This document shows positions 7,619-63,563 of a stretch of DNA of 64,000 nucleotides, one piece after another. Origin of the DNA: an uncultured Acidobacteriota bacterium (GTDB lineage: Bacteria > Acidobacteriota > Vicinamibacteria > Vicinamibacterales > CAVVIG01). The first letter of the stretch is position 1; each line of letters opens with the position of its first letter. Under the pieces are notes generated by a model. It was given only the letters and a program-made list of their open reading frames with translations. It searched no databases and was not told the origin of the DNA. Position numbers and translations under genes: made by a program. The stretch covers positions 519,531 through 583,530 of the forward strand of contig CAWCFI010000003.1 of assembly GCA_963794705.1 (NCBI GenBank), read 5' to 3'.

Positions 7619-8821
7619 TCACGGCCTAGCGCGCCTGACCGATCTCGGCTTCGCTCCTGCGGAGGGCCGCGCCTCTAGAACCTTTCGATAGATCTCCATC
7701 GCCCGGCGGCCGACCGCGTCCCAGCTCAGCTCGCGCGCGAAGTGATCCGCGAGCTGCGCGCGTTCCGCGTCGAGATCGCGGCGCGCCGGCGTCGGCGAGC
7801 GCACGCGCGCAGTCCTCGGCATCGCCCGGCGTCCACAGCGCGCCGACTGCTCCCGCACCCGTCATCAGCCGGAACGTCGGGATGCTGGTGACGACCGGCA
7901 CCGCGCCGCACGCGCAGGCTTCCATCAGCGAATAGCCGCTCCCCTCGTGATGGCTGCCGACGACGAACAGATCGGCCGCGCTGTAGAAGGAGGCCATCCG
8001 GTCGTGCGGCACCGCGCCGGCCAGGCGCACCCGCGCGCGTCAGCGCGGGCGACCGCTGCGATCGCGCTGCGCGCACGGCCTCGAGCAGCTCGCCGTCGCC
8101 GTAAATCATCGTCAGCGTCGCGTCGGGCAGATCCGGCAGCGCGCGCTCGAAGCCCGTCGAGCACCGTCAGCGGATCCTTGTTCGCGTTGAGGCGGCCGAC
8201 CCAGAGCATCGCCGGCGATCCGGTGACGCCGCTCGGCACGCGCCGTCGCGCGCGATCGATCGGCGTGCCCTGAGCCTTGTCGAAGGGCTGCAGCGTCGAG
8301 CTCGCCGGCATCACCTGATACGTCGGCTGATCGCGGGCGATGAAGCCGGCAGCGCCGCCACGCCGCCGCGTGCTCGTCGGCGGCAAACAAGAAACGCGTC
8401 GGCCGCGCGGCGCGTGGCGCGGCCGAGCAGGCGCAGCCCCGGGGCGCGGCCGATCGCGCCGCCGTCGGCGTGGCTCTGCACGACGAGGGCGCACGGCCGC
8501 GATCGAGCGCGCGGCGCAGCAGCCAGGTCTGCACCGGAAAGATCAGGCCGTTGACGTGGGCGACGTCCGGCCGGCAGCGCCGCGACCGCCGCCGGGATCG
8601 CCGCGCGGCGGAAGAGGTAGTCGACGCCGTTCCTGACGACCTCGACGTCGCGGTGAAAGCGCTGGACCACGGCGACCGGTCCGGCGCCGGCGCGGACGCA
8701 GCGCGTCACTCCAGCCGGTGAGGGTGAAATAGCGGCCGAGCAGCGCGTCGGGGTCGGTCAACGCCTTGTCGAACGCGTAGTTAACCTGGACGACCGAAAG
8801 CGGGTTCGGGCGAGTTTTCAC
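7619..8821 (-). pseudogene. Glycosyltransferase family 4-like (GT-B), several frameshifts
   Basis: Fragments on one strand: MKTRPNPLSVVQVNYAFDKALTDPDALLGRYFTLTGWS, VAVVQRFHRDVEVVRNGVDYLFRR, FYSAADLFVVGSHHEGSGYSLMEACACGAVPVVTSIPTF, DAERAQLADHFARELSWDAVGRRAMEIYRKV. Confidence 0.7.
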
Positions 8822-8908
8822 TTGAAGCGGCGCCCCATCGCCATATATTGTGCCTCTGCGTACAATAGTGTCGTTTTTCCCTCATCCACATCCACGCAGG
8901 AGTGCTCG

Positions 8909-11125
8909 ATGACTCGAAGAGTGTTTCAATCCCTGGTGGCCGTCGTCTCGCTCGTCCTGCTGGTCGGCCTGAAGCTCGCCGGGCAGACCGCCGGCGATGC
9001 CGAGCACGAAGAACGGCGACTGGACGCACTACACCGCCGATATGCGCGGCACCAAGTACTCGCCGCTCGATCAGATCAACGCGCAGCAACTTCAATCAGC
9101 TCGAAGTCGCGTGGCGGTTCAAGACCGACAACCTCGGCACGCGCCCCGAGTTCAAGCTCGAAGGCACGCCGCTGGCGATCAAGGGCGTCCTCTACACGAC
9201 CGCCGGCACGCGCCGCTCGGTGGTCGCGCTCGACGGCCGCACCGGCGAGCTGATCTGGACGCACAGCTACCGCGAAGGCAACCGCGCCGCGATCGCGCCG
9301 CGCCAGCTGTCGGGCCGCGGCGTCTGGTACTGGACCGACGGCAAGGGCGACGACCGCATCCTCTACGTCACCACCGGCTATCGCCTGATCGCGCTCAACG
9401 CCAAGAACGGCGCGATGGTCTCGTCGTTCGGCGAAGGCGGCGTCGTCGATCTGAAGAAGGGCGCGGTCATCGGCAAGGGCCAGCAGATCGAGCTGGAGAC
9501 CGGCGAGATCGGCCTGCACTCGACGCCGACCATCGTCGGCAACATCGTGCTGATCGGCTCGTCGTTCAAGGAAGGCATGACGGTCGCGACGCACAACAAC
9601 ACCAAGGGCCTGGTGCGCGCGTTCGACGTGAAGAGCGGCAAGCTGCTGTGGACGTTCAACACGATTCCGCGCCCCGGCGAGTTCGGCAACGACACGTGGG
9701 AAAACGAGTCGTGGGCGATCAACGGCAACACCGGCGTGTGGACGCAGATCACGGTCGACGAGGAAGCCGGGCCTGGTCTATCTGCCGGTCGAAGATCCGA
9801 CGTCGGACTACTACGGCGGCCATCGGCCCGGCAACAACCTGTTCGGCGACAGCATCGTCTGCGTCGACCTGAAGACCGGCCAGCGCAAGTGGCACTTCCA
9901 GATCGTGCATCACCCGATCTGGGACTACGACATGTCGTCGGCGCCGATCCTGCTCGACGCCAACGTCAACGGCAAGCTGGTCAAGGCGGTCGCGGTGCCG
10001 AGCAAGCAGTCGTTCCTCTACGTGTTCGATCGCATCACCGGCCAGCCGATCTGGCCGATCGAAGAGCGCGCCGGTGCAGCAGTCGGACGTGCCGACGGAG
10101 AAGACGTCGCCGACGCAGCCGTTCCCGACCAAGCCGCCGGCCTACGGCCGTCCGTTCCTCAAGGTGCCGGACGATCTGATCGACTTCACGCCGGCGATGC
10201 GCGCGCAGGCGCTCGAGAATCTCAAGAGCTATCGCGTGGCGGGGATGTACAACCCGCCGCTGCTCGGCACAGGTCGGCGGACGCTGCGCGGCGCGATCAA
10301 CGTCGGCAACGCGAGCGGCGGCACCAACTGGCCGGGCGCCGGCGCCGATCCGGAAACGCACACCGTCTACGCGCAGGCGGCGATGGCGTTCGTCAGCGGC
10401 CTGTCGCTGCGCGAGCCGCCGGCGACGCTTCGCTCGGACATGAAGTACGTCTCGGGCGTCGACGGCACCGAATTCCGCGAAGCGCTCGGCCCGGGCTTCG
10501 GCAGCGCGGCCGACTCGCCGCTCGCGGCGGCGCGCGGACGCGCCGGCGCGGCGCGGCGCCGGCGCGCCGACGCGCCGGCGGCGGGACGCGGCGGCCGTGG
10601 ACGCGGCGCGGCGCGGCGGCGGCGCCCGGCGCGCCGGCGCCGCCCGCGGGCGGCGGCGGCGGCCTCCAGGTCGAAGGCCTGCCGATCGTGAAGCCGCCGT
10701 ACGGCGTGCTCGCGGCGATCGATCTCGACAAGGGCGAGCTGAAGTTCCAGGTGCCGCACGGCGACACGCCGGACAACGTCCGCACCAATCCCGCGCTGCA
10801 GGGGATGAACATCCCGAAGACCGGCCAGAACGGCAGCGTCGGCCTGATGGTCACCAAGACGCTCGTCGTGCTCGGCGATCCGCAGGTGACGGCGCCGCCG
10901 GGACGCGCCGCGCGGCGCGATGCTGCGCGCCTACGACAAGAACAACGGCACCGAGGTCGGCGCCGTGTGGATGCCGGCGGCGCAGAGCGGATCGCCGATG
11001 ACCTACATGGCCGACGGCAAGCAGTACATCGTCGTCGCGGTCAGCGGCGGCAACTACTCGGGCGAGTACATCGCGTTCGCGCTGCCGAACGCGGCCGCGG
11101 AACACCAGCGTCGGGCAGCAGCTAA
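8909..11125 (+). pseudogene. Soluble PQQ-dependent dehydrogenase (glucose/quinate/shikimate-type), paralog A, at least 7 frame changes
   Basis: SD GCAGGAG then ATG 8909. Signal peptide. Colinear with paralogs B and C ([78 protein letters not shown]) but read across frames 2,0,1,2,0,2,0. No stop in the last frame before gene B, so the end is approximate. Confidence 0.8.
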
Positions 11126-11160
11126 GCAGTCTTCACTCAATCGAAAAAGGGCAAACAGAA

Positions 11161-13367
11161 ATGACACGAACATTGAAACGCACCGTGCTGGCGGCCGCCG
11201 CCATCGCCGGCGTGGCCGGGCTGATGACCGCCGGGCCGCGCATGACGGCCCAGCTCTCGGGGCAGGCCCCGGGATTCCCGAGCACCAAGAACGGCGAGTG
11301 GCCGTACTACACCGCCGACGTCAAGGGCTCGCGCTACTCGCCGCTCGATCAGATCAACGGCAGCAACTTCAACCAGCTCGAAGTCGCCTGGCGCTTCAAG
11401 ACCGACAACCTCGGCACGCGTCCCGAGTTCAAGCTCGAAGGCACGCCGCTGATGGTCAAGGGCGTCATCTACGCGACCGGCGGCACGCGCCGCTCGGTGG
11501 TCGCGCTCGACGGCAAGACCGGCGAGCTGATCTGGGTCCACGCCGAGAAGGAAGGCGCCCGCGCCGTCAACGCGCCGCGCCAGCTCTCGGGCCGCGGCCT
11601 CTCCTACTGGACCGACGGCAAGGGTGACGACCGCGTCATCTACGTCACGCCCGGCTATCGCCTGATCTCGCTGAACGCGAAGACCGGCGTGCCAATCACC
11701 GGCTTCGGCAGCAACGGCGTCGTCGACATGAAGGTCGGCGCCGTCGTCGGCAAGGGCCAGCAGATCGATCTGGAGACCGGCGAGATCGGCCTCCACTCGA
11801 CGCCGACCATCGCCAAGGACGTGATCATCGTCGGCTCGTCGTTCCGCGAAGGCCTGACGGTGAAGACGCACAACAACACCAAGGGCCTGGTGCGCGCGTG
11901 GGACGTCCGCACCGGCAAGCTGCTGTGGACGTTCAACACGATCCCGAAGCCGGGTGAATTCGGCAACGACACCTGGGAGAAGGAGTCGTGGGCGCAGAAC
12001 GGCAACACCGGCGTGTGGACGCAGATCACCGTCGACGAGGAGCTCGGCCTGGTCTACCTGCCGGTCGAGGATCCGACGTCGGACCTCTACGGCGGCCATC
12101 GTCCCGGCAACAACCTGTACGGCGACAGCCTGGTGTGCGTCGACCTGAAGACCGGCCAGCGCAAGTGGTACTACCAGATCGTCCATCACCCGATCTGGGA
12201 CTACGACATGCCGGCGGCGCCGCTGATCGCCGACATCAACGTCAACGGCAAGCCGGTCAAGGCGGTCGCGCAGGCGACCAAGCAGGGGCTGCTCTACGTG
12301 TTCGACCGCGTCACCGGACAGCCGGTGTGGCCGATCGAAGAGAAGCCGGTGCCGCAGACCGACGTTCCCGGCGAGAAGACCTCGCCGACGCAGCCGTTCC
12401 CGAGCCGTCCGCCGGCCTATTCGCGCAACGGCGTGATCGAGAGCGATCTGATCGACTTCACGCCGGAGCTCAAGGCCGCGGGTCTCGAAGCGTCGAAGCG
12501 CTTCCGCCTCGGCCCGGTGTTCCTGCCGCCGGTCGTCAGCAAGCTCGAAGGCCCGATCGGCGCGCTGACCTCGGGCACGCTGAGCGGCGGCGTCAACTGG
12601 CCGGGCTCGGCCTACGATCCGGAAATGCATGCCTTCTTCACGCATGCGTGCAACTCGTGCATCGCGCCGCTCGGCCTGGTCGCGCCGCCGAAGGACTTCT
12701 CGGATCTCGACTACGTGATGGGCACCGCCGGCGCCACATTCCGTCCGATCGAGGGTGGCGGTGTCGGCGAATCGGCCGACTCGCCGCGTCCCGCTCGTCC
12801 GGCGACACCTCCCCCGCCACCGACTCCTCCGCCGGCCGCGGCGGGTGGCGGTCGCGCGGGTGCTCCGCCGGCAGGTGGCGGCGGCGGTGGATTCGGTGCG
12901 ACGGTTCAGGGTCTGTCGATCGTCAAGCCGCCGTACGGCCAGATCGTCGGCATCAACCTGGACAAGGGCGAGCTGATGTGGTCGACGCCGCACGGCGACA
13001 CGCCTGACGCGGTCCGCAATCATCCGGCGCTGAAGGGTGTGAACATCCCGAAGACCGGTCAGCAGGGCAACGTCGGCGTGGTCGTGACCAAGACGCTGGT
13101 CGTATCCGGCGATCCGAGCGTGACGACGACGCCGGAGCATCCGCGCGGCGCGATGCTGCGTGCCTACGACAAGAACACCGGCGCGCAGGTCGGCGCGGTG
13201 TGGATGCCGGCGCCGCAGAGCGGCTCGCCGATGACCTACTAGCGTGGACGGCCGCCAGTACATCATCGTCGCGGTCAGCGGCGGCAACTACTCGGGCGAG
13301 TACATCGCGTTCGCGCTGCCGCAGTCGGCGACGCGCGGCACGGCGGGACGGTCGGTAGAATTCAGAA

Positions 13368-13378: not shown

Positions 13379-15659
<2,281 letters not shown>

Positions 15660-20179: not shown

Positions 20180-20233
20180 GTAACGCAGGCCTTCAGGCCT
20201 GCACGACACGACGGACCTGAGGGTCCGCGCTAC
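20180..20233. repeat. REP pair (inverted orientation)
   Basis: GTAAC-GCAGGCC-TTCA-GGCCTGC then CGGACC-TGAG-GGTCCG-CGCTAC. Confidence 0.6.
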
Positions 20234-20251
20234 AACAGAGCGGAAAGCGAA

Positions 20252-21668
20252 CTAGGCGGGCAGCGGCAGTTCGAGCGTGACGATGAAACCGCCGTCCGGC
20301 GCGTTGGCGGCGGTGGCGGTGCCGCCGTGGACCTCGAACGTCCGCCGGGTGATGGCGAGTCCCAGCCCGGTCCGCTCGGGGTTCGACAGGCCGTCGGTCA
20401 CCACCTGGGCGAACGGGACGAACAGCCCGTCGACCGCGGTCTCCGGCACGCCCGGGCCGTGATCGCGCACCTGGATGATCGCGCGCGATCCGTCGGCGGC
20501 CTGGCGCCGATCCAGCGAGACCTCTACCTTCGTGCGCGCCGCCGTGTGCCGGACCGCGTTGCGCACGACGTTCTCGACCGCGCCGCGCAGCATCTCGCGC
20601 GCGCCTTCCACCACGCAGGCGCCGCGCTGGCTGAACGCGACCGCGCACTCGCGATGACGCGCCTCGTACTCGGCGTCGGTGCTGACCTCTTCGACCACGC
20701 TGCCGAGGTCGAACCGCGTCGGCCGTTCGAGGTCGACGCCGCTGTCGACCCGCGCCATGGTCAGCAGCTGGCCAATCAGCTTGTTGAGCCGCTCCGCTTC
20801 GGTCTCGATGCGATCGAGATGCTCGGTGGTCGCCTGGCCGTTGCGCTGACGAGCAAGGCCGAGCGCCACGTTCAACCGCGCCAGCGGCGAGCGCAGCGCG
20901 TGCGAGACGTCCGCGAGCAGGTGCCGCTGGGCGGTCACCAGGTGCTCGATCCGCTCGGCCATGCGATCGAAGTCGCGGCCGAGATCGGCGAGCTCGTCCT
21001 TGCGCTCGATCACGCTGCCGTCCACCCGCGTCTGCAACTGCTGGTTGGCGATGTTGCGCGCCGCCAGCGCGCAGCCGATCGATCGGCTGCGCGATGTGGC
21101 GCGCCAGCACGAAACACAGCACGCCGGCGACCAGCAGGACCGCCGCGACCCGGCCGATCGACTCGCGGCTCGGGCGCTCGGCGTAGATGTCCGGCGACAG
21201 GAACTCGAACAGCGATCGGTTCAGGACCGAGGGGCTCGGGTAGTCGACCACCACGATGTGCGACGCGCCGCGCGCGTCGATGACGCGTTCGGCGATGATC
21301 CGTTCCGCCGGGTCCACGCGCGGCGAGCCCGGCGGCCACTCCGCCATCGAATTCACCAGCCGCCGCACCGGCGCATCGGGAGTGCGTCCGAGCACGTCCT
21401 TGCCGTCGGCGTCGAAGATGTAGTTCACGACGCCGGGATCCATCGCGAACGAGGCGACGTAGCGCGCCAGCGCGGCGGGGCCTTCGCGGCGCAGGATGCC
21501 TGATTCCTGCCGCGCCCACATGTCCAGGCGCGGCGTGTACTTCTCCTCCCAGCGCCGGTCGTCCTCGGCGCGCGAGTGGCTCAACTCGGTCAGCGAGACC
21601 AGCGTGCCGCTGACGATCAGCACGCCGAGCCAGAACCAGAGAAAGATTTTGACGTGCAGCCGGCGCAT
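20252..21668 (-). pseudogene. CpxA/EnvZ-type sensor histidine kinase, frameshift near 21050
   Basis: MRRLHVKIFLWFWLGVLIVSG N-terminus. HAMP, then LLADVSHALRSPLARL H-box and GLGLAITRRTFEVHGG in ORF 20252..21037. TGATG overlap with the regulator gene. Confidence 0.8.
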
Positions 21669-22416
21669 CAGCGTTCGTGGACGGGCATGCGCTCGTGCAG
21701 CGCATACTGATAGCCGATGCCGCGGACGCCCTTGATGCGCTCGGTCGCCGTCGGGCGCCGGCCCGAGCTTGCGCCGCAGGTTGCTGACGTGGGTGTCGAT
21801 GCTGCGGTCGAACGGCGAGAACTCCCGGCGCAGGACGCTCTGCACCAGCTCGTCGCGCGGGATCACCCGCCCGGCGCCGCGCAGCAGCAGGTCGAGCAGA
21901 TCGAACTCGACCGTCGTCAGGTCGAGCGCCTGATCGCCGCGCCGCGCGACCCGCGCGCCCTTGTCGACCGAGACGTCGCCGACCACGAGCGCGATCGCCG
22001 GCGCGCCGCTCGATCGACGCCTGTCGGCCGCGACCGGCGCAGGACCGCGTCGATGCGCGCGCTGAGCTCGCGCGGATTGAACGGCTTGGGCAGGTAGTCG
22101 TCGGCGCCCATCTCGAGGCCGAGGATCCGGTCCTGCTCGTCGCCGCGCGCCGTGAGCATCAGGATCGGCCGCCGCGACTGCGCCCGCACGCGGCCGCAGC
22201 ACCTCGAAGCCCTTGAGATCCGGCAGCATCACGTCGAGCACGACGATGCGCGTGATCGCCGGCGAGCGCGCGCTCGATCCCGAGACGTCCGGTATGGACG
22301 CACTCGACCGCATAGCCTTCGGTGGCGAGATATTCGGACAACAGCTCGCACAGCTCGGTGTCGTCGTCGACGACGAGCACGCGCAGCTCCGGAGAGCCAG
22401 CAGGCAGTGTGGACAT
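21668..22416 (-). pseudogene. OmpR/CpxR-family response regulator, at least 4 frameshifts
   Basis: MSTLPAGSPELRVLVVDDDTELCELL / [18 protein letters not shown] / [46 protein letters not shown] / [25 protein letters not shown]...HVSNLRRKL / GVRGIGYQY, in alternating frames. Confidence 0.8.
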
Positions 22417-22549
22417 GGGGTGCAGATCGTCATTGTACAGAGCCGTTCAGCCGCGCCAAAGGTGAAGATTTGTCAAGGACGTCTTCACAAAGCTGAGCAG
22501 CGCGCGCCGATTGGCCCCTGTAGCCTGTAAAGGCCGAGGTCGATAGACC

Positions 22550-22921: not shown

Positions 22922-24871
22922 ATGGCGCTGTCCTCGTTCCATCCCATCGTTTCGCAGTGGTTCTCTGAAACACTCGGCGAGCCGACCCGTGCCCAGGCGC
23001 TCGGATGGGCGGCGATCCGCGAGCGCCGTCACACGCTGATCGCGGCCCCGACCGGTTCGGGCAAGACGCTCGCCGCCTTCCTCACCTCGATCGACGATCT
23101 CGCGCAGGAGGCGATGGCCGGGCCGCTGCCGGACGAAGTGCGGGTCGTCTACGTCTCGCCGCTCAAGGCGCTGAGCGCCGACATCCACAAGAACCTCGCC
23201 GAGCCGCGTGCCGGCATCGAGCGGATCGCCGCGGCCGCCGGCGTGGCCGTGCCGCGAATCACTTCGGCGGTGCGCACCGGCGACACCCCGGCCTCGGAAC
23301 GCGCGGCGATGCTGAAGCGCCCGCCGCACATCCTGGTCACCACGCCGGAGTCGCTCTATCTGCTGCTCACGGCGGCGCGCAGCCGCGAGATGCTGCGGAC
23401 GGCGCGCACCGTCATCGTCGACGAGATCCACGCGGTGATCGGGACGCGGCGCGGCGCCCATCTGGCGCTGACGCTGGAGCGCCTGCAGGAGGCCGCCGAG
23501 CGTCCGCTGCTGCGCATCGGCCTGTCGGCGACGCAGAAGCCGATCGAAGAGGTCGCACGTTACCTGATCGGGTCGCGTTCCCAATCTGACATCTGCAATC
23601 TGCCATCTGCGATTGCGATCATCGACGAGGGCCACCGCCGCGCCATGGATCTCGGCATGGAGGTGCCGCGCTCGCCGCTCGACGCGGTGATGTCCCACGA
23701 GATCTGGGAGGAATATTTCGCGCGGCTGACCGCGCTCATCGAGCAGCACCGCACGACCCTGATCTTCGTCAACACGCGGCGCATGGCGGAGCGCGTGGCG
23801 CGTCACCTGAGCGAGCGCCTCGGCGAGGAGGCGGTCACCGCCCATCACGGCAGCCTGTCGAAGGAGAAGCGGCTCGACGCCGAAATGCGGCTGAAGGCCG
23901 GCCGCCTTCGGGCGCTGGTCGCAACCGCGTCGCTGGAGCTGGGCATCGACATCGGATCGATCGACCTGGTGTGCCAGATCGGATCGCCGCACCGGATCGC
24001 GACGCTGCTGCAGCGCGTCGGGCGATCGGGCCACACCATCTCGGGCACGCCCAAGGGACGGCTGTTCCCGGTGTCGCGCGACGATTTGATCGAGTGCGCG
24101 GCGCTGATGCGGTGCGCCCGCCGCGGCGAACTCGATCGCATCGTCAGCCACGACGCGCCGCTGGACGTGCTGGCGCAGCAGATCGTCGCCGAGACCGCGT
24201 GCCGCGACTACGGCGAGGACGAGCTGTTCGCACTGGTCAGACGCGCCTGGCCGTATCGCGCGCTGACGCGATCGAGCTTCGACGCCGTGGTCGCGATGAC
24301 CGCCGAGGGGTTCGCGACCAGGCGCGGACGCCGCAGTGCGCTCGTTCACCGCGACGAAGTGAACGCGCGGCTGCGCGGGCGGCGCGGCGCGCGCATGCTG
24401 GCGATCGCGTCGGGCGGCGCCATCCCGGAAGTCGCGGACTATCGGGTCGTGCTCGATCCCGGCGACACCTTCATCGGCACCCTCAACGAAGACTTCGCGA
24501 TCGAGAGCAACGCCGGCGACGTGTTTCAGCTGGGCAACGCGTCGTGGCAGGTGCTGCAGGTGCTGACCGGCGTCGTGCGCGTGGCCGACGCAAAAGGGGC
24601 GCCGCCGACGATTCCGTTCTGGCTCGGCGAGGCGCCGGCGCGCAGCGACGAGCTGTCGCGCGCCGTCAGCGATCTGCGCGCGGATATTGAGGCAAGACTC
24701 ACGGCAGGCCTGAAGGCCTGCACTACACGAGACGACGGCGGACATCCCGCGGTCGTAGTGCAGGCCTTCAGGCCTGCCATGGCCGCGGTCGAAGCCTTTA
24801 GGCCTGCCATCGCCGCAGTCGTATGCAGGCCTGAGGCCTGCCATGGCCGCAGTCGTAGTGCAGGCCTTTAG
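22922..24871 (+). CDS. lhr: ATP-dependent helicase Lhr, N-terminal fragment (helicase core)
   Basis: Walker [48 protein letters not shown]. The ORF ends at a TAG inside a REP loop (24869..24871). Confidence 0.9.
23582..23609. repeat. Heptanucleotide array NNATCTG x4 inside lhr
   Basis: caatctg acatctg caatctg ccatctg. Translated as [11 protein letters not shown]. Confidence 0.6.
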
Positions 24872-24887
24872 GCCTGCCGTCGCGTGG
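24703..24887. repeat. REP array inside lhr: one inverted REP plus four tandem 36-nt REP-derived units
   Basis: GGCAGGCCTGAAGGCCTGCACTAC (24703..24726). Units start at 24752 (36 nt), 24788 (30 nt), 24818 (34 nt) and 24852 (36 nt), each GTC-GTAGTGCAGGCCTT(C/T)AGGCCTGCC-ATGGCCGCA-like. Confidence 0.85.
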
Positions 24888-27416
24888 CTCGTCGAGGAGA
24901 CAGGCATTCCCGAGGCCGCCGCGGAACAGGCCATTGCCTATCTCGCCGATGGCCGCGCCGCGCTGGGCGTGCTGCCGACGCAGGACACCATCGTGCTCGA
25001 GCGGTTCTTCGACGAATCGGGCGGGATGCAGCTCGTGCTGCACGCGCCGTTCGGCAGCCGCGTCAACAAGGCGTGGAGCCTGGCGCTGCGCAAGCGATTC
25101 TGCCGGCAGTTCAACTTCGAGCTTCAGGCCGCCGCCACCGAGGACGCGCTGCTGCTGTCGCTCGGCCCGCAGCACTCGTTCCCGCTGGCCGACGTATTCC
25201 GCTATCTGCACCCGGCGACGACGCGCGACGTGCTGGTGCAGGCGTTTCTCGACGCGCCGGTGTTCCAGACGCGCTGGCGGTGGAACACCACCATCTCGCT
25301 GGCCGTGCCGCGCAATCGCGGCGGCAAGAAAGTGCCGCCGCAGCTGCAGCGGATGCTGGCCGACGACCTGATGGCCGCGGTCTTTCCCGACGCCGCCGCC
25401 TGTCTGGAAAACATTCCCGGCGATCGCGAAATCCCGGACCATCCGCTCGTCAGCCAGGCGGTGCGCGACTGCCTCGAGGAAGCGATGGACTTCGAGGCGC
25501 TGTCGGCCGTGCTCGCCCGGATCCACGGCGGCGGGATCCGCTGCGTCGCGCGCGACACGCCGGAACCCTCCGCGCTGGCGCACGACATTCTCAACGCCCG
25601 GCCGTACGCGTTCATGGACGATGCCCCGCTCGAAGAGCGGCGGACGCAGGCGGTCTACACCCGCCGCGCCGGCGAGCCCTCGGGCGCCGATGACCTCGGC
25701 GCGCTGGATGCCGCCGCGATCGAACGAGTCCGCGACGAAGCGCGTCCCGATCCGCGCGACGCGGATGAGTTGCACGACGCACTCCTCAGCGCGGGCTTCC
25801 TGACGCAGCGCGACATCACCTCGGTCGCGCCGGACCTTTTTCGCGCGCTCGCCGACGCGCGTCGTGCGTGCGAATTCAGCATTCCACATTCGGCATTCAG
25901 AATTCTTGCGGCGGCCGAGCGCCTGCCGGAATTGCGCGCCGTTCACGCCGACGCGGTGTGCGCACCGCTCGTCGATCCGCCGCCGTCGCGCGCCGCGCGG
26001 GTCTGGAGCCGGGACGAAGCGATCGTCGGACTCCTGCGCGGCCGCCTCGCGATCGCCGGACCGACCACGGCGCAGGCGCTCGCCGACGCGATGGGCATCG
26101 ACGTCGCGGACGCGGATCGCGCGCTGCTCGCGCTCGAGGGTGAGGGCCTGGTGCTGCGCGGCCACTTCTCCAAACGGGCACCCCTTTTGGAATGGTGTGA
26201 CCGCCGCCTGCTCGCCCGGATTCATCGCTACACGCTCAACCGCCTGCGCGCCGAAATCGAGCCGGTCAGCCCGTCCGACTTCATGCGGTTCCTGTTCGCG
26301 TGGCAGCACGTCGCGCCCTCGAGCCGCCTGACCGGGCTCGACGGACTGCGCGCCGTCCTCGACGCACTCGACGGCTTCGAGCTGGCTGCCGACGCCTGGG
26401 AGCGCGCGATCCTGCCGGACCGCATCGACGGCTATCAACCGTCGATGCTCGACACGCTGTGCCTGACCGGCGAGATCGGCTGGGCCCGGCTCTCCCCCAC
26501 CGGCCGTGACGCGACGCAGATGGTCGGCGCGACGCCGATCGCCCTGTTCCTGCGCGAGCACGCTAATGCCTGGGCAGCCCTGAAAGACTGGGGCCCGAGT
26601 CACGACGACGACCCCGAGCAGCGCCTCGAGTCGCCGAAGCGCGATGAGCGCGACGGCGGCCGCCTCGTGCTCGAGGCGCTTCGCACCCGCGGCGCCTCGT
26701 TCATCACCGACCTGACGTCAGCCTGCGGCCTGGACGAAGCGGCGGTGCGGACCGCGCTCGGCGATCTCGTCGCCGCCGGTCTCGCCGCCTCCGACGGCTT
26801 CGGCGGCCTGCGGACCATCATCCGCTCGTCCAGCGGACGCTCGACGCCGCCGGGCCGCAGCAGCGTCACGGGCCGCTGGTCCCTCTTGAACGGCGCCGGC
26901 CTTCAGGCCTGCGATCGCGAAACCGCCGTCGAACTCCAGGCGCGCACACTGCTGAAGCGCTACGGCATCGTGTTCCGCCGCCTGCTGGCCCGCGAAGCGA
27001 ACGTCGCGCCCTGGCGCGAGCTGATTCGGGTGTACCGGCGTCTGGAGGCGCGTGGCGAAATCCGCGGCGGGCGATTCGTGTCCGGCATGTCCGGCGAGCA
27101 GTTCGCGCTCGACGGCGCGATCGCGGGCCTTCGGGAAATGCGTCGGACGCCGGCCGACGGCGCGTGCCTGGTCATCAGCGCCGCCGATCCGCTGAACCTC
27201 GCCGGCATCGTAACCGCGGGCGAGAAGGTACGGGCCGTCGCGCCGACGCGGATTGCGTATCGGGACGGCGTCGCTGTTGCAGCACTCGAAGGCGACTATG
27301 TGCGACCATTGATCGCGCTCGCCGACGTCGCTCCCGCGATTGCCGCCGAGGTGGCGACAACGCTTGCGGGGCGCCCGGTCGGGGCGGTGCTCAGTGGTTT
27401 TGTCGGGAGGTCATGA
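24843..27416 (+). CDS. lhr: ATP-dependent helicase Lhr, continuation (Lhr-core domain 4 plus C-terminal domain)
   Basis: 857 aa. [36 protein letters not shown]. 649 + 857 aa together match the roughly 1500 aa size of Lhr. Confidence 0.85.
25872..25905. repeat. Heptanucleotide array NNATTCN x5 inside lhr
   Basis: gaattca gcattcc acattcg gcattca gaattc. Translated as [12 protein letters not shown]. Same motif family as 13355..13397 and 38673..38700. Confidence 0.6.
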
Positions 27417-30712: not shown

Positions 30713-31606
30713 ATGACCAAGCTCAGGACTCTCATCACGCCAACAGCACTGCTTGCGGCGTTTACTCTGGCTGCGGCTCCCTCGTTCGCGCAGGAAAAGT
30801 ACCACGGCCGACAGGGCTCATCGGGCCAGCAGTCGAACGGCCAGGCGTCGGGCGGCCAGAGCCGCGAGCGGGCTCAGCCGCGCAGCGAAGCGCCGCGCGC
30901 CCAGGCGCAGCCCGCTCAGCCGCAGGCCGCTCGTCCTCAGAACGCCGCTCCGCCTCCGGTCGCGTCGCGCCAGGAAACGCCGCGCGTGCAGCCGCAGCGC
31001 CAGGCGGAGACGGCGCGCGGCGAGAACCGCGCGAACAATAACAACCGCGCGAACAATAACAATCGCGCGAACAATAACAATCGCGCCAACGATTACCACG
31101 GCAACGACGTCGGACACGCGGTCCCCCGGGGCAACGTGTACGCGCCTCACTACGATCCGCGATATGCGCCGAACTACTCGCCGCGCGTCTACGCGCCGAG
31201 GGTATACGGACCACGTTCCTATTACCGGCCGTACGTCTTCCGTCCCCGCTACTCGGTCGGATTCGGCATCTACCTCGGATACCCGGTGCCGTATACCTAC
31301 AGCTACCCGTATCCGATTGAGGTGTATGGATACGGCGCGCCGCGCAATGAAGTGATGGTCGCGCCGGGCTCAACGGCCTACGGCGGCGTCGCGCTCGAGA
31401 TCACGCCGGCGGACGCGGATGTGTTCGTGGACGGCCAGTATGCCGGGCGCGTCCAGGACTTCGACGGGACGACCCAGCCGCTGACGCTGACGCCGGGCAC
31501 CCACCGCATCGAGGTGCAGGCACAGGGCTACGAGCCGCTGAGCGTGGACGTCGGCGTGCAGGCAGGCCAGGTCATTCCGTATCGAGGCGACCTGCGGCCA
31601 TATTAG
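30713..31606 (+). CDS. PEGA domain protein with low-complexity Q/R/N/Y-rich region
   Basis: GGAGGG SD, signal MTKLRTLITPTALLAAFTLAAAPSFAQ. C-terminal PEGA-like ALEITPADADVFVDGQYAGRV...LTLTPGTHRIEVQAQGYEP. Confidence 0.75.
   Translation: MTKLRTLITPTALLAAFTLAAAPSFAQEKYHGRQGSSGQQSNGQASGGQSRERAQPRSEAPRAQAQPAQPQAARPQNAAPPPVASRQETPRVQPQRQAETARGENRANNNNRANNNNRANNNNRANDYHGNDVGHAVPRGNVYAPHYDPRYAPNYSPRVYAPRVYGPRSYYRPYVFRPRYSVGFGIYLGYPVPYTYSYPYPIEVYGYGAPRNEVMVAPGSTAYGGVALEITPADADVFVDGQYAGRVQDFDGTTQPLTLTPGTHRIEVQAQGYEPLSVDVGVQAGQVIPYRGDLRPY
31027..31080. repeat. 18-nt tandem repeat x3 (RANNNN) in the PEGA gene
   Basis: cgcgcgaacaataacaa(c/t) x3, followed by a partial fourth copy. Confidence 0.8.
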
Positions 31607-37127: not shown

Positions 37128-37231
37128 CAGTCGGCCGTCTCAGACGAAACAGTCGACAGCTTCAGTCTCAGTCGACTGAGACTGCTGACTGAGACTGCTG
37201 ACTGAGACTGCTGACTGCTGACTGCTGACTG
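37128..37231. repeat. CAGTC/GACTGAG repeat block: 22-bp perfect palindrome, 13-mer x3, 7-mer x3
   Basis: cagtctcagtc|gactgagactg (37163..37184). ctgactgagactg tandem copies to 37210. ctgactg x3 at 37211..37231. Lies in a divergent intergenic region. Confidence 0.85.
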
Positions 37232-37292
37232 CCCGCCGCATCATACCCGTTTGGGTGATTCGCGGCGCCGCACGTTCTGTCACGATTCGCGC

Positions 37293-38195: not shown

Positions 38196-38272
38196 TATTT
38201 CAGAGTTAAAACTTCAGATTTCAGGTTGGCATTTCAGAATGAATCTGAAATCTGAAATCTGACGTCTGAAAT
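38196..38272. repeat. AT-rich TTCAGA / TCTGAAA heptamer dyad upstream of the LuxR-type gene
   Basis: Left arm has TTCAGA-type units and the right arm has atctgaa atctgaa atctgac gtctgaa. Core perfect inverted repeat ATTTCAGA-N5-TCTGAAAT (38231..38251), 25 nt before the GTG at 38276. Confidence 0.7.
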
Positions 38273-38275
38273 CCT

Positions 38276-38653
38276 GTGAGAGTGCTTCTCGTCGGATCCC
38301 CATCCGGCCGCGCAAGGCTGCGCACGCAGGTGAACGGATCGATGGCGGTCGCGGGCGAGTTCGACTCGCTCGCGGCGGCCCGCGCCTCGGAGCTCGACAG
38401 CGACGGAATTCTCGTCGCGCCGGATGCGATCGATCCCGATGAGGACGGCTTCGACGAACCGCTGACCGCGCGCGAAGTGCAGGTGCTGGAGCTGCTTGCG
38501 GAAGGGCTGCCGAACAAGGCGATCGCGGCGCGCCTGCGCATCAGCGACCAGACCGTGAAGTTTCACGTGTCGTCCATCTCCGGGAAGCTCGGCGCGAAGA
38601 ACCGGACCGACGCGGTCCGGCGGGCCGTCCGCCGCGGACTGATCACGCTCTGA
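38276..38653 (+). CDS. LuxR/NarL-type HTH regulator with truncated, degenerate receiver
   Basis: 125 aa, GTG start. C-terminal LTAREVQVLELLAEGLPNKAIAARLRISDQTVKFHVSSISGKLG. The N-terminal ~60 aa (MRVLLVGSPSG...) lack the acidic pocket. Confidence 0.8.
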   Translation: MRVLLVGSPSGRARLRTQVNGSMAVAGEFDSLAAARASELDSDGILVAPDAIDPDEDGFDEPLTAREVQVLELLAEGLPNKAIAARLRISDQTVKFHVSSISGKLGAKNRTDAVRRAVRRGLITL

Positions 38654-38672: not shown

Positions 38673-38700
38673 CAGAATTCAGATTGGAATCTGAATTCTG
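38673..38700. terminator. Perfect 13-bp AT-rich hairpin between convergent genes (possible bidirectional terminator)
   Basis: CAGAATTCAGATT-GG-AATCTGAATTCTG, followed by aaatccg aaatctg aaatctc heptamers up to the HtrA stop. Confidence 0.5.
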
Positions 38701-38719
38701 AAATCCGAAATCTGAAATC

Positions 38720-39646
38720 TCATCGCCCCTCGCGCGGCACCACAGTCACTTTTCGCTTTCGGGCCGCGCGAAGGAACGTCACGGCGGTTGGTTCGCCGAT
38801 CTTGTCCTCGGTCAACAAGCGATGAAGATCGTCAACGCCGGTCACCGGCGTGCCGGCGAGCGCCAGCACCACATCGCCATCCTTCACCCCCGCGGCCGCC
38901 GCGGGGCTGTTCGGCTCCACCGACACCACGAAGACACCGGACGTGACCGCGAGCTGATTGTCGCGCGCCACCGCCCTGGGAATCGGCACGGTCTGTCCAG
39001 CCAGCCCGATATAGCTGCGGCGGATGCGCCCGTCGCGAATCAGCCGCGCCGCGACGAACCGTGCCGTGTTGCTGGCGATCGCGAAGCACAGGCCCTGGGC
39101 GGGAAGAATCATCGCGGTGTTGACCCCGATCACCTCGCCTCGCGTCGTCACCAGCGGACCGCCGGAGTTGCCGGGATTGAGCGCCGCGTCGGTCTGGATG
39201 ATGTCGTCCATCAGCCGGCCGGAGCGCGCCCGCAGCGATCGACCCAGCGCGCTGACGACGCCCGCCGTCACCGAATGGTGAAAGCCGTAGGGGTTGCCGA
39301 TGGCGATCGCGATCTGTCCGACCCGCACCGCGCGCGAGTCGCCGAGGGTGGCGAACGGCATGGCGGAGCCGTCGACGCGGATCACCGCGAGATCGGTGTC
39401 GGCGTCCTGTCCGATCACATCGGCGCGCAGCGACCGGCCGTCGGTCATGACCACCGTCAGCGCGCCGCCGTTCTCGACCACGTGGCTGTTGGTGAGGATC
39501 AGGCCGTCGGGCGTGAACAGCACGCCAGAGCCGCCGCCGCGGCCCGCGTCGATCTTGACGACCGCGGGACCGACGGTGTCGACGGCGTGAATCACCGCCG
39601 AAGAGTAGGCATCGAGGAGCGCCGCATCGTCTGGCTGCGGGAGCAT
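38720..39646 (-). CDS. HtrA/DegP-family serine protease (S1C) with PDZ domain, intact triad
   Basis: 308 aa. TNSHVV, DTDLAVIRV, GNSGGPLV. PDZ-like C-terminus. Confidence 0.88.
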   Translation of the reverse strand: MLPQPDDAALLDAYSSAVIHAVDTVGPAVVKIDAGRGGGSGVLFTPDGLILTNSHVVENGGALTVVMTDGRSLRADVIGQDADTDLAVIRVDGSAMPFATLGDSRAVRVGQIAIAIGNPYGFHHSVTAGVVSALGRSLRARSGRLMDDIIQTDAALNPGNSGGPLVTTRGEVIGVNTAMILPAQGLCFAIASNTARFVAARLIRDGRIRRSYIGLAGQTVPIPRAVARDNQLAVTSGVFVVSVEPNSPAAAAGVKDGDVVLALAGTPVTGVDDLHRLLTEDKIGEPTAVTFLRAARKRKVTVVPREGR

Positions 39647-44456: not shown

Positions 44457-44858
44457 ATGACGCGTGTAAAGCTCCTCACGATTCTGTGTGCGGTCGCCGC
44501 GCCGATCTGGGTCGTCGGCCAGACCAGCAACTTCATGGGCGGGACGCCGGGCGCGGTTGATGCCACCAAGGTGCGCACTACCCGACTGAAGTTCCCCAAG
44601 GGCAGCCGCTCCAACTGGCACAGTCACACCTGGGGCCAGCTGCTGATGCTCGAAGAGGGCAAGGGCCGGACCCAGGTGCGCGGCGGCCCGGTGATCGAAA
44701 CCGCGCCGGGCCAGCCGTGGTGGACCGCGGCGGGCGTCGAACACTGGCACGGCGCCGCGCCGGACACCGACGCGCTGCAGCTCACGATCTACGAGGGCGA
44801 CGTGAAGTGGCTCGAGCCGGTCCAGGACAAGGAGTACCTCGCGGCGCCGAAGAAGTGA
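44457..44858 (+). CDS. Secreted cupin domain protein
   Basis: Signal MTRVKLLTILCAVAAPIWVVGQ. Cupin motifs GSRSNWHSHTWGQLLMLEEG and GVEHWHG. Confidence 0.75.
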   Translation: MTRVKLLTILCAVAAPIWVVGQTSNFMGGTPGAVDATKVRTTRLKFPKGSRSNWHSHTWGQLLMLEEGKGRTQVRGGPVIETAPGQPWWTAAGVEHWHGAAPDTDALQLTIYEGDVKWLEPVQDKEYLAAPKK

Positions 44859-46628
44859 TCGTCGCGCTCCTGGCGGCCGCCGTTCTCGCGGGACTGCCTC
44901 AGGCACCCGACGGCTCGGCGATCTTCGCGCGCGACTGTTCGAGCTGCCATGACGGCGCCACCGGGTCGCGCGCGCCGAGCCCCGATCTCCTCAAGCGCCG
45001 ATCGCCGGAAGCGATCCTCGCCGCATTGACCGCAGGCGGCATGCGTCCGCAGGGCGGCCGCCTGAGCGGCGCCGAACGTCGCGCCGTCGCCGAATATCTC
45101 AGCGGCCGCGCGCTCGGCAGCGACATCACCGGCGCGAAGATCGGACGCTGCACCGCCTCGCCGCCGCTGGTCGATTCCGCCTCCTCACCCGCCTGGCGCG
45201 GCTGGTCGCCGTCGGCGGCCAACACCAGATTCCAGTCTGCGCAGCAGGCCGGCCTCACCGCGGAGCAGGTGCCGAAGCTGTCGTTGAAGTGGGCCTTCGG
45301 GTTTCCCGACGCCACCTCGGCGTGGTCGCAGCCGACCATCGCCGCCGGCCGGCTGTTCGTCGGCAGCCAGAACGGCACCGTTTACTCGCTCGACGCGGAG
45401 AGCGGGTGCATCTACTGGACCTTCACCGCCAAGAGCGGCGTGCGCACCGCGCTGTCGTTCGGCCCGCGCGAAGGCGCCGGCTACGCGGTCTACTTCGGCG
45501 ACACCGGCGCCAATGTCTATGCGCTCGACGCGGCAACCGGGCGGGAGTTGTGGTCGCGGCGGCTGGACGACCATCTCTACGCTCGCATCACCGGATCGCC
45601 CACGCTGTTTCAGGATCGCCTGTACGTGCCGGTCTCGTCGATGGAAGAGACCGCCGCCAGCCAGCCTGGCTACGAATGCTGCACGTTCCGCGGCAGCCTG
45701 AACGCGCTCGACGCGAGAACCGGCGCCACCCTCTGGCGAACCTGGATGGTGCCGGAGGCGCAGGCCGCCGGAAAGAACGCCGCCGGCGCAGCGCTGTGGG
45801 GACCATCGGGTGTCGGCATCTGGTCGGCGCCGACGATCGACGTCAAGCGCGGTCTGATCTACGCCGGCACCGGCAATACCTACAGCGCGCCGGCCCAGCC
45901 GACCGCCGACGCGATTGTCGCCTTCGATCTGCAGAGCGGCGCGATCAAGTGGATCCATCAGTTGACCGCCGGCGACGTCTTCGGCTGCCGCGCCGGCAGC
46001 GCGAACTGTGGCGAGAAGGCGGGGCCGGACTTCGATCTCGGAACGCCGCCGATGCTGGTCACGGTGGCGGGGCGGGACGTGATCATCGCGGCGCAGAAAT
46101 CCGGCAACGCGTTCGCGCTCGATGTCGAGAAGGAGGGTGCGCTGCTCTGGCAGTATCACGCCGGAGAAGGATCGATCTGGGGTGGCATCCAATGGGGCGC
46201 CGCCGTCGACGGTGAGCGCGCCTACTTCCCGGTGTCGGATATCCGGACCCCGAAGCCAGGCGGCCTGCACGCGGTGGATCTCGTCAGCGGCGACGCGCGC
46301 CTGGTACCTGCCGCCGCCGCCGCTGAAGTGCGCGGCCGGCACCGGCTGCAGCGCCGCGTTGATTTCCGCGCCGACGCTCATTCCCGGCGTGCTGTTCTCC
46401 GGGTCGAACGACGGCGCGCTGCGCGCGCACGCCACCCGGGACGGCGCAGTGATCTGGGAGTTCGACACCAATCGGGAATTCGAGACCTTGAACGGCATCA
46501 AGGCCGGCGGCGGCGCGATCCAGGGTCCGGGACCGACCATCGCCGGCGGCATGCTCTACCTCAACTCAGGCTACGGCAATCATCTCGGCCGCCCCGGCAA
46601 CGTCCTGCTCGCCTTCGAGGTGCAGTAG
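44855..46628 (+). pseudogene. Quinohaemoprotein dehydrogenase with N-terminal haem-c domain (polyvinyl-alcohol dehydrogenase-like), one frameshift near 46291
   Basis: GTG at 44855 overlaps the cupin stop (GTGA). CSSCH haem site. PQQ propeller text (GRLFVGSQNGTVYSLDAESG...). The C-terminus RAWYLPPPPLKCAAGTGCSAALISAPTLIPGVLFSGSNDGALRAH...GNVLLAFEVQ is in ORF 46122..46628. Confidence 0.8.
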
Positions 46629-51558: not shown

Positions 51559-51628
51559 GGCAGGCCTAAAGGCCTGCACTACGACACATGTCGCGCTCCG
51601 ACATGTAGCGCAGACCTTCAGGTCTGCC
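51559..51628. repeat. REPIN-like inverted REP doublet
   Basis: GGCAGGCCTAAAGGCCTGCACTAC, 22 nt, GTAGCGCAGACCTTCAGGTCTGCC. Lies between convergent genes. Confidence 0.85.
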
Positions 51629-56900: not shown

Positions 56901-57142
56901 GTTTTCCACACGCCGCCGTTCACCATGCCGATGTAGAAGGTGTACGGCTGGCTCGGCACGCCGGCCGCCGCCTTGGTGCGGCCCGCCGCGATAGGGCCGA
57001 TGTTGCGCCACTTCATGTCGGCAAACAGCGACGGGTTCACGCCGGGCGCCTGCTGCGCGGGAATGGAGACCACGAGGGAACCGACCAGCGCAAAGGTGAC
57101 GGCGAGCACGGAACAGAGGCGGCGTGAGGACATGCTGGACAT
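53919..57142 (-). pseudogene. Secreted BNR/Asp-box repeat (sortilin/VPS10-like) protein, many frameshifts
   Basis: Signal MSSRRLCSVLAVTFALVGSLVVSIPAQ. Asp-box motifs across frames: [78 protein letters not shown]. Confidence 0.75.
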
Positions 57143-57901: not shown

Positions 57902-57952
57902 TCCTCAGTCCTCAGTCCTCAGTCCGTCAGTCGGCAGTCTCAGTCTCAGTCG
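57902..57952. repeat. GACTGAG/CTGAGGA heptamer array forming the RBS of the ABC permease gene
   Basis: Minus strand reads tgagac tgagac tgccgac tgacggac tgaggac tgaggac tgagga ATG. Same motif family as 37128..37231. Confidence 0.8.
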
Positions 57953-61076: not shown

Positions 61077-61131
61077 GGCGGACCTGAAGGTCCGCACTAC
61101 ATCTGTCGTAGTGCAGGCCTTCAGGCCTGCC
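61077..61131. repeat. REPIN-like inverted REP doublet
   Basis: GGCGGACCTGAAGGTCCGCACTAC, 7 nt, GTAGTGCAGGCCTTCAGGCCTGCC. Confidence 0.85.
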
Positions 61132-62808: not shown

Positions 62809-62905
62809 GGCGGGTCCTTTTGGACCCGCCGCCGGGTGCCAAAGGACCCGGGACCCGCCGCATCGCCATCGACGCCCATGAGTAGTGCAGGCCTTCAGGC
62901 CTGCC
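62805..62905. repeat. REP variants upstream of the RAYT gene
   Basis: GTAGG-GCGGGTCC-TTTT-GGACCCGC-C (62805..62830; the MaoC TAG stop lies in the head). CCGGGTGCC-AAA-GGACCCGG. GTAGTGCAGGCCTTCAGGCCTGCC (62882..62905). Confidence 0.8.
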
Positions 62906-62925
62906 CTTTGCAATCGTGCCTCCGC

Positions 62926-63438
62926 ATGATCACCAATCGACCGAAGCGACTGAGGGGCGTGAGCTATGTCGGGATGCAGCGATATTTCGTCACCACCTGT
63001 ACCGCATTCCGAACTCCAACCTTCACGGACGCAACCGTCGCAGAAAACGCCATCGCTCTAATTTTGAAATCAGCCGCCAGCCACGGTTTCGCAATTGTCG
63101 CGTATTGCGTGATGCCCGACCACGTTCACCTGCTGGTGGCGGGAGAACGTGAGGACGCGGATCTTGGCAGGTTCGTGAAACACACCAAGCAAGTCACCGG
63201 GTTCGCCCATAGTCAGTCAAAGCACGCAGAGCTCTGGCAGCCCGGCTACCACGAGCGCGTTCTTCGCGACGAAGAGGCCACCCTGACCGTCGCACGGTAC
63301 ATTCTGGAGAATCCAGTGCGCGCTGGCCTCGCCGAAACTCTCGGAGAATGGCCGCATGCCGGCTCCGGCGTCTATACGTGGCCAGAACTCATGACCGCAT
63401 GGGAAGAGAATGCACCGTCATGGGAAAGGCAGACCTAA
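62926..63438 (+). CDS. REP-associated tyrosine transposase (RAYT; IS200/IS605 Y1 HUH family)
   Basis: 170 aa from MITNRPKRLRGVSYVGMQRYFVTTCT. HUH motif MPDHVHLLV. Catalytic-Tyr helix TVARYILENPVRAGL. The stop TAA lies in a REP loop. Confidence 0.8.
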   Translation: MITNRPKRLRGVSYVGMQRYFVTTCTAFRTPTFTDATVAENAIALILKSAASHGFAIVAYCVMPDHVHLLVAGEREDADLGRFVKHTKQVTGFAHSQSKHAELWQPGYHERVLRDEEATLTVARYILENPVRAGLAETLGEWPHAGSGVYTWPELMTAWEENAPSWERQT

Positions 63439-63563
63439 AGGTCTGCACTACTGCCGCCGGCTGGCGGGAAGCAGACCTAAAGGTCTGCACTACTAGCGTG
63501 GCGGGCAGACCTGAAGGTCTGCACTACTGCCGCACACAAGTAGTGCAGGCCTTCAGGCCTGCC
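63428..63563. repeat. REP array: three direct GCAGACC-type copies plus one inverted GCAGGCC-type copy
   Basis: 63428..63451, 63470..63493 and 63504..63527 (G/AGCAGACCT(A/G)AAGGTCTGCACTAC). 63540..63563 (GTAGTGCAGGCCTTCAGGCCTGCC). Confidence 0.9.

Follow-up and report, generated by a model that had tools for sequence, protein, structure and literature searches.

Why does the gene of a DNA-repair helicase fall into two open reading frames (ORFs) at the very place where it carries a tandem array of palindromes? The question is raised by a stretch of 64,000 nucleotides (nt) from an uncultured Acidobacteriota bacterium (GenBank assembly GCA_963794705.1, contig CAWCFI010000003.1), which we call the window throughout and in which the helicase gene lhr is covered by ORFs 22922..24871 and 24843..27416. 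Our analysis indicates that both ORFs belong to a single Lhr, that the array at 24703-24887 consists of true GTAG-type repetitive extragenic palindromes (REPs) and that it occupies what appears to be a length-tolerant linker of Lhr domain 4. What we regard as most informative, as far as sequence comparison can tell, is that REPs of several families occur in frame in the same linker of many related Lhr proteins. The best explanation as a whole, to which we assign a probability of roughly 70%, is that a REP pair has been amplified in a tolerant linker and that the frame break is an artefact.

One helicase gene and its REP array

The upstream ORF (22922..24871, forward strand, 649 aa) encodes DEAD, Helicase_C and WH_Lhr as well as the beginning of domain 4 (PF00270, PF00271 and PF19306), and its last ~17 codons are an out-of-frame read-through of repeat units 3 and 4. 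The downstream ORF (24843..27416, forward strand, 857 aa) continues with DEAD_assoc, which is the remainder of domain 4, with WH3_Lhr and WH4_Lhr and with an AlkZ-like region (PF08494, PF23235, PF23234 and PF06224, the AlkZ-like match being weak); its 'start' ATG is the methionine codon of unit 3 (PAMAA). In tblastn, the first ORF is 87.6% identical to residues 1-625 of the Lhr of the syntenic relative L083, and the second matches residues 611-1486 of the same protein. In the Lhr model PRK09751, which has 1538 positions, the first ORF covers 353-643 and the second 662-1451, and the combined domain order is that of the long bacterial Lhr, namely a DExH core, a winged helix (WH), domain 4 and C-terminal WH modules.

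The relatives belong to the Acidobacteriota, mostly to the Vicinamibacterales; the comparison covered 80 species-representative genomes and the 120 closest proteins. The best homologues of the joined protein, with a top identity of 85%, are without exception single polypeptides (120 of 120; 1404-1539 aa), and the window gene reaches this class of ~1400-1550 aa only after frame repair. The junction aligns between residues ~620 and ~640 of Mycobacterium smegmatis Lhr (7LHL numbering), whose domain 4 spans aa 530-856 of the Lhr core (PMC5758891). Because the Pfam and NCBIfam profile coverage of the two ORFs is complementary and their homologues are unsplit, they appear to be the halves of one Lhr, as a preliminary description of this DNA had proposed. 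Unsplit homologues and a junction inside domain 4 also mean that no natural gene boundary lies here; a natural two-gene Lhr, which that description had named as the finding that would overturn its proposal, was rejected, since none of the 120 best homologues is split.

The array opens with an inverted REP (24703..24726, reverse strand; GGCAGGCCTGAAGGCCTGCACTAC), which the frame of ORF 22922..24871 translates as (T)AGLKACTT and which forms a head-to-head dimer with the direct copies that follow a spacer of 25 nt (24727..24751, forward strand, reading RDDGGHPA). Four direct units, all on the forward strand, are then arranged head-to-tail from 24752 to 24887 across the junction of the two ORFs. 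Unit 1 (24752..24787) has 36 nt, made up of the REP GTAGTGCAGGCCTTCAGGCCTGCC and a 12-nt spacer, and is read as 12 aa, while unit 2 (24788..24817) has lost 6 nt of the 5' stem arm in frame, so that its 30 nt are read as 10 aa. Unit 3 (24818..24851; 34 nt, GTCGTATGCAGGCCTGAGGCCTGCCATGGCCGCA) is the site of the frame change: it carries GTATGC instead of GTAGTGC and the loop CCTGAGG, and it retains a hairpin with a 7-bp stem and a 3-nt loop. Unit 4 (24852..24887, 36 nt) encodes 12 aa in the frame of ORF 24843..27416 and adjoins the conserved WLVEE. This layout of an inverted copy followed by units of 36, 30, 34 and 36 nt agrees to the base with the preliminary description, and the stop codon of the upstream ORF is, as stated there, the TAG in the loop of unit 4 (24869-24871). 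The array has a Tandem Repeats Finder score of 170, and the expectation of a strong hairpin array is supported by the predicted fold of the 201-nt array region (-129.3 kcal/mol, z-score -9.05).

Are these units genuine REPs? The motif GCAGGCCTNNAGGCCTGC is matched 14 times in the 64-kb window with no more than two mismatches, where 0.04 matches would be expected, and every copy outside lhr lies between ORFs, so that the family is multi-copy and mostly intergenic within the window. The element is a short GC-rich imperfect palindrome with a stem of 7-8 bp (GCAGGCCTTCAGGCCTGC) and with GTAG at one end: direct copies have the form GTAGTG-GCAGGCC-loop-GGCCTGC-C, with GTAGTG before the stem, and inverted copies end with CACTAC after it, in lhr and in intergenic DNA alike. 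A 24-mer identical to the copies in the lhr linker is found between genes at 36011, 61113, 62887 and 63545, and variants lie at 20185, 51560, 51610 and 63429-63522. Intergenic copies also form head-to-head dimers arranged as in lhr, at 51560-51627, where the spacer likewise measures ~25 nt, and at 61083-61130. Given 14 motif matches against 0.04 expected and linker copies identical to intergenic ones, and with the defining sequence features present, the lhr repeat units are true GTAG-type REPs.

The same REP flanks a gene for a REP-associated tyrosine transposase (RAYT) at 62883-63563, a segment whose G+C is locally lower (0.648). The gene (62927..63438, forward strand) matches PF01797 Y1_Tnp with an E value of 1.9e-11 and 44.6 bits against a cutoff of 23, and its product contains the motifs HVHLLV, GYHERVLRD and ENPVRAGL. 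One direct REP precedes it (62883..62907, forward strand), and a cluster of both orientations follows it (63428..63563), in which three inverted copies with a period of 42 are succeeded by one direct copy, an architecture like that in lhr but intergenic. The segment is a complete REPtron, and its transposase is the likely mobiliser of the REP family found in lhr. The identical intergenic copies and the REP-flanked RAYT gene uphold the earlier view that the units are derived from REPs; the view that they are read in frame is supported as well. At 62808-62830 and 20215-20235, GC-rich hairpins with other stems (GGCGGGTCCTTTTGGACCCGCC; GCGGACCTGAGGGTCCGC) adjoin REP copies, which suggests that this genome holds more than one palindrome family.

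A length-variable linker in related Lhr proteins

The array interrupts the stretch from ...DLRADxExRL to WLxxE, here termed the linker, which is hypervariable in length among relatives (0-474 nt in the 80 genomes, 0-74 aa in the 120 proteins). In the window it comprises ~62 aa, against as few as 0-13 aa in orthologues, and the array is an extra segment in this sense. The orthologue alignment supports the earlier idea of a linker insertion by placing the array in this length-variable region, which is most probably a part of Lhr domain 4 that tolerates changes in length.

REP-encoded peptides occur in frame in the linker of 50 of the 120 intact homologues. Inverted copies are read there as AGLKACTT, (E)VRLKPDTT, VRLKADTT or AALKGCAT, direct copies among others as VAHGFSRA, and 26 proteins contain both orientations. 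Such motifs are 100-200 times as dense in the linker as elsewhere in the protein, a descriptive count for motifs that were defined post hoc. Tandem copies are common as well, with five in P0031 and three each in P0032, P0054 and P0011. Between REP families the stem arms co-vary (GCAGGCC, GTCCGGC, GTCCGCC, GCAGCCC), and since both arms change together, the hairpin is preserved in the DNA. The reading frame through the linker is preserved in all 120 homologues and at 76 of the 80 genome loci, the four exceptions being noisy Nanopore metagenome-assembled genomes (MAGs).

Two Illumina-assembled contigs that encode close intact homologues were compared in their DNA sequence. In L083 (an ENA SPAdes contig), an intact gene of 1486 aa contains GGCAGGCCTGAAGGCCTGCACTAC, a spacer, GTAGTGCAGGCCTTTAGGCCTGCC and a degenerate second unit, and its first REP is a 24-mer identical to the inverted copy at 24703-24726 and lies at the same position. 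In L084 (a JGI contig), too, an intact gene contains this REP pair. Both orthologues have a single direct REP where unit 4 stands in the window, and unit 4 would by this comparison be the original copy. Linkers of other relatives hold other elements, again in frame: a different palindrome pair in L001 (AEKGSYPFS / AEKGVRPLF), nine repeats of 39 nt (TPDPTGGEQGLPL) with flanking REPs in L049 (3169-3642), and inverted-repeat inserts of 200-240 nt resembling miniature transposable elements with inverted repeats (MITEs) in L011, L020 and L054, the last a Gemmatimonadales MAG. An AlphaFold model of P0004, the Lhr of L083 (residues 1-900), places the REP-encoded residues 596-616, with a predicted local confidence (pLDDT) below 50, between helices 567-590 and 614-632/636-653; the model is mediocre (mean pLDDT 65.5, predicted template modelling score 0.61) and lends weak support to a disordered linker.

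We consider the following course of events the most likely. A head-to-head pair of GTAG-type REPs from the genome's own RAYT-associated family lies within the lhr coding sequence, in the domain 4 linker between the preceding helix and the helix that starts with WLVEE. The direct REP and its 12-nt spacer would then have been duplicated in tandem as a 36-nt unit, likely by slippage or unequal exchange among near-identical units; tandem duplication rather than repeated insertion is indicated by the spacers of units 1-3, which are nearly the same (CATGGCCGCGGTC, CATCGCCGCAGTC, CATGGCCGCAGTC). As the unit corresponds to 12 codons, the array would remain in frame and yield a (V)VQAFRPAxAA linker; an in-frame loss of 6 nt shortened unit 2. 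That purifying selection on Lhr holds inserts of this kind in frame is shown by the many intact orthologues, and the inserts are most likely carried along neutrally in a surface loop.

Could the array instead serve a function? Its hairpins might tune expression of the helicase in mRNA or single-stranded DNA, its peptide might be a selected flexible spacer in domain 4, or it might be an active target of the RAYT. In-frame REPs and palindromes do recur at this site in many Vicinamibacterales and some Gemmatimonadota, a strong structure is predicted (z = -9), and intragenic REPs are found in excess in replication and repair genes (PMC3733652). Among the closest relatives, however, are proteins whose linker is short and free of REPs (11 aa in P0002, at 83% identity, and 7-13 aa in many others), and close relatives are unlike one another in REP family, in copy number and even in the type of element, which fits neutral turnover in a permissive loop and makes a function improbable. 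We are similarly sceptical of a more far-reaching reading, in which the linker is a landing pad throughout the Vicinamibacterales and in some Gemmatimonadota, where REPs, doublets, MITE-like repeats and minisatellites of different families repeatedly insert, replace each other and expand, in frame throughout, either through targeted RAYT insertion beside a resident hairpin or through selection for a structured element, nucleic acid or peptide, that tunes the expression or function of Lhr, and not by mere tolerance. In a weaker variant, the frameshift would be genuine and Lhr would consist of two coupled polypeptides.

Two further sites in lhr vary in length. A degenerate REP-like hairpin (GCCGGCCTTCAGGCCTGC; 26895..26912, forward strand, reading GAGLQAC) lies in the C-terminal domain, in a variable loop after GRWSLL, where relatives have 0-30 extra residues, including PDRRAEALRH...GAGLQPC, and L083 is longer by 54 nt. 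A small in-frame tandem duplication of ~2 copies (CAATCTGACATCTG; 23571-23615), situated in a loop of the helicase core, adds 27 nt relative to L083, which has GSQSETSIIDEGH there.

The frame break in unit 3

Is the split of lhr real? The start of ORF 22922..24871 is congruent to 2 modulo 3 and that of ORF 24843..27416 to 0, and comparison with L083 by tblastn places the break at 24811-24831. The preliminary description had attributed the shift to two missing bases in unit 3. Adding two bases there does produce one open frame of 1498 aa, and to this extent the calculation holds. The frame is restored equally well by dropping any single base within 24759-24868 (deletion of T24824, for example, leaves a 33-nt unit 3 that encodes 11 aa), so that two missing bases are one arithmetic solution among others.

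Our preferred explanation is that the break is probably an error of the assembled consensus and no biological split, and that the organism most likely makes one Lhr of ~1500 aa. This judgement is drawn from the context of the gene. Frames were called by a codon-usage Viterbi segmentation and verified by Pfam and by comparison with L083; heuristics based on GC3 and on GC1-GC2 (G+C content by codon position) did not separate sense from antisense in this sequence of 68% GC. A pyrroloquinoline quinone (PQQ) dehydrogenase gene (8933-11181) is spread over at least four frames, with an extra G in CCGGGCC at the first shift. In a hybrid histidine kinase gene (13407-15646), HisKA, HATPase_c and Response_reg lie in different frames, the latter two covering no more than profile positions 26-92 and 1-66 of 111, respectively. 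A BNR/sortilin-type gene (53922-57109) falls into at least six frame pieces, and a second PQQ-repeat gene (44856-46625) shifts at 46303. Upstream of lhr, comparison with the syntenic L083 reveals three frames in a response-regulator gene (21671-22416) and a shift at 21065 in a kinase gene; relative to the L083 DNA, these two genes together contain six uncompensated 1-nt insertions and no uncompensated deletion. Multiple frameshifts, mostly 1-nt insertions, were also observed in a glycosyltransferase gene, and the broken regions of the window are 7688-8932, 8933-11181, 13407-15646, 20255-22440, 44856-46625 and 53922-57109.

The broken genes otherwise retain their codon bias and homology, which together with the near-exclusive occurrence of insertions argues for consensus error rather than gene decay. 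The window looks like part of a long-read assembly prone to errors, which are concentrated in some genes. The sign of the lhr shift (+1) is that of a single inserted base, and because all uncompensated indels relative to L083 are 1-nt insertions, one spurious extra base, or a consensus error, is at least as likely as two missing bases. Two 1-nt deletions, as initially assumed, are an unlikely cause for the same reason and in view of the many frameshifts in the window. Up to nine shifts are spread along lhr in related Nanopore MAGs, which stem from the Microflora Danica project (PMC12313526). The linker frameshifts of L069, L073, L077 and L080 were considered as a recurrent feature and rejected, as shifts occur all along lhr in these Nanopore MAGs and those in the linker are therefore uninformative.

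Several observations weigh against an artefact. No second uncompensated indel is present in 4.4 kb of lhr, and the six genes that follow (~6 kb downstream) are intact, so errors are clustered and not uniform. The sole break of lhr falls inside a hairpin and tandem array, and such arrays are natural mutation hot spots too. Unit 3 moreover departs from the unit consensus at two separate places, for which a single error is insufficient. The same points speak for a real frameshift, in which replication slippage or a hairpin-induced deletion has turned lhr into a pseudogene or into two polypeptides, the second restarting at ATG 24843: the two differences in unit 3 are independent, and the ATG is preceded by GAGG-N7, with GAGG present only in unit 3 with its shortened loop. 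We consider this a minority possibility. The many frameshifts in unrelated genes of the window, nearly all of them 1-nt insertions with codon bias and homology otherwise intact, count against it, as does the lack of any split among the 120 homologues. The break would also lie inside domain 4 of the Lhr core, and the N-terminal fragment alone would probably be dead, since M. smegmatis Lhr-(1-562) is without ATPase activity (PMC5758891).

A full-length Lhr could in principle be made from the given sequence by programmed +1 ribosomal frameshifting within the array, as 110 nt (24759-24868) are open in both frames and strong RNA structure lies downstream. We give this idea next to no weight. Orthologues with the same REPs are plainly in frame and conserve nothing that would need recoding, known +1 slippery or stop-codon contexts were not seen in the sequence, and frameshifts are abundant elsewhere in the window. 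A programmed frameshift site was rejected accordingly, as no shift is conserved among orthologues.

Neither ORF was found on record, a search of genome contigs with the unit-junction pattern for a second copy of the array returned only two chance matches (Rubrivivax and Actinomycetota), and two scans of metagenome contigs returned none. Neither reads nor another assembly of this organism were found, and the artefact reading is accordingly drawn from context. In annotation, the two ORFs are best merged into a single lhr gene that is flagged, until reads decide, either for a suspected sequencing error or as a pseudogene; they should not be entered as two genes. More generally, the overall frameshift load of the assembly is the standard by which gene splits at repeats in long-read MAGs should be assessed.

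The window contains further tandem repeats. A very GC-rich, low-complexity repeat lies at 10519-10663 within the broken PQQ dehydrogenase gene, and repeats of 18 nt (31025-31090, 3.7 copies, 95% matches), 13 nt (37174-37232, 4.4 copies) and 7 nt (57887-57951, 9.7 copies) were found elsewhere. Arrays of the heptamer AATCTGA (~4.6 copies each) stand at 38242-38273 and 38688-38720 on either side of a small LuxR/GerE-like ORF (38318-38653), with inverted TTCAGAT-type copies just upstream.

Comparison with known systems

The closest precedent is the survey of Di Nocera, De Gregorio and Rocco (2013, BMC Genomics 14:522; PMC3733652), who described GTAG-tagged palindromes of 20-40 bp that are associated with RAYTs and occur predominantly as head-to-head dimers and clusters. 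Some of these REPs are contained entirely in ORFs and translated in frame, clusters account for up to 43-82 aa, and many of the host genes act in DNA replication and repair (UvrA/B/C, UvrD, RecBCD, DnaE2, ligase, helicases); the authors proposed that intragenic REPs reside in flexible linkers or loops (PMC3733652). The REPs in lhr resemble these cases in being GTAG-tagged, organised as a dimer and a cluster, RAYT-associated and, apart from the break in unit 3, in frame in a repair gene, and the lhr array is a further example of this phenomenon. The preliminary description had regarded a coding REP minisatellite in a repair helicase as unusual, which is right in that such arrays are uncommon; the phenomenon as such has already been described (PMC3733652). 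Unlike the earlier cases, one site here holds different REP families across many orthologues, and the lhr array has probably grown through duplication in tandem of a 12-codon unit that comprises a REP and its spacer. A search for 'Lhr' in the text and supplement of PMC3733652 gave no relevant match, and neither Lhr nor the Acidobacteriota are among the reported hosts. What is new relative to the literature that we found is Lhr as host, the Acidobacteriota as lineage and a single site that serves many species as a hot spot for REPs of several families and for other palindromes; Lhr and soil Acidobacteriota can be added to the DNA-repair proteins with in-frame REPs. A lead within the same survey is Oter_3781 of Opitutus terrae, an 876-aa DEAD/DEAH helicase with a REP dimer at residues 502-529 (PMC3733652 supplement), which might be an Lhr-core relative.

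An older precedent are the Rickettsia palindromic elements (RPEs), selfish palindromes that lie in frame in genes encoding functional proteins (Ogata et al. 2000, cited in PMC3733652). The REPs in lhr are likewise palindromic inserts that, apart from the break in unit 3, are read in frame. RPEs differ from them in being longer, with ~100-150 bp in RPE-1, in residing in an obligate intracellular alphaproteobacterium, and in having neither a linked RAYT nor a tandem amplification in codon multiples.

With the Lhr of M. smegmatis and Escherichia coli (PDB 5V9X, 7LHL; PMC5758891, PMC8053096), the window protein shares RecA1, RecA2, WH, domain 4 and the C-terminal WH modules with an AlkZ-like region. 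The sequences on either side of the insert can be aligned with the M. smegmatis protein, which has ~20 residues (roughly 620-640, 7LHL) where the window Lhr has ~62 REP-encoded residues. The hundreds of orthologues constitute a natural series for the persistence of selfish palindromes in coding sequence, for the co-variation of hairpins within a protein linker and for the insertion tolerance of the Lhr core within domain 4.

Variable-number tandem repeats in bacterial proteins are known as in-frame coding minisatellites. The lhr repeat is similar to these in that its unit length is a multiple of three and that copy number and unit length vary among relatives, up to nine 39-nt units in L049. 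With a unit that is a multiple of codons, changes in copy number do not switch the gene on or off, and a phase-variable contingency repeat was rejected, since units of 36 and 30 nt are multiples of three and orthologous arrays are in frame. Unlike in ordinary coding minisatellites, the lhr unit is derived from a mobile palindrome. REP clusters (bacterial interspersed mosaic elements, BIMEs), hairpin-forming REP doublets (REPINs) and REPtrons with RAYT transposases were reportedly described by Nunvar et al. in 2010 and by Bertels and Rainey in 2011. The GTAG head, the GC-rich hairpin, the inverted doublets and the REP-flanked RAYT gene at 62883-63563 are all shared with these systems, which are defined as extragenic, whereas in lhr the doublet and the array are coding sequence.

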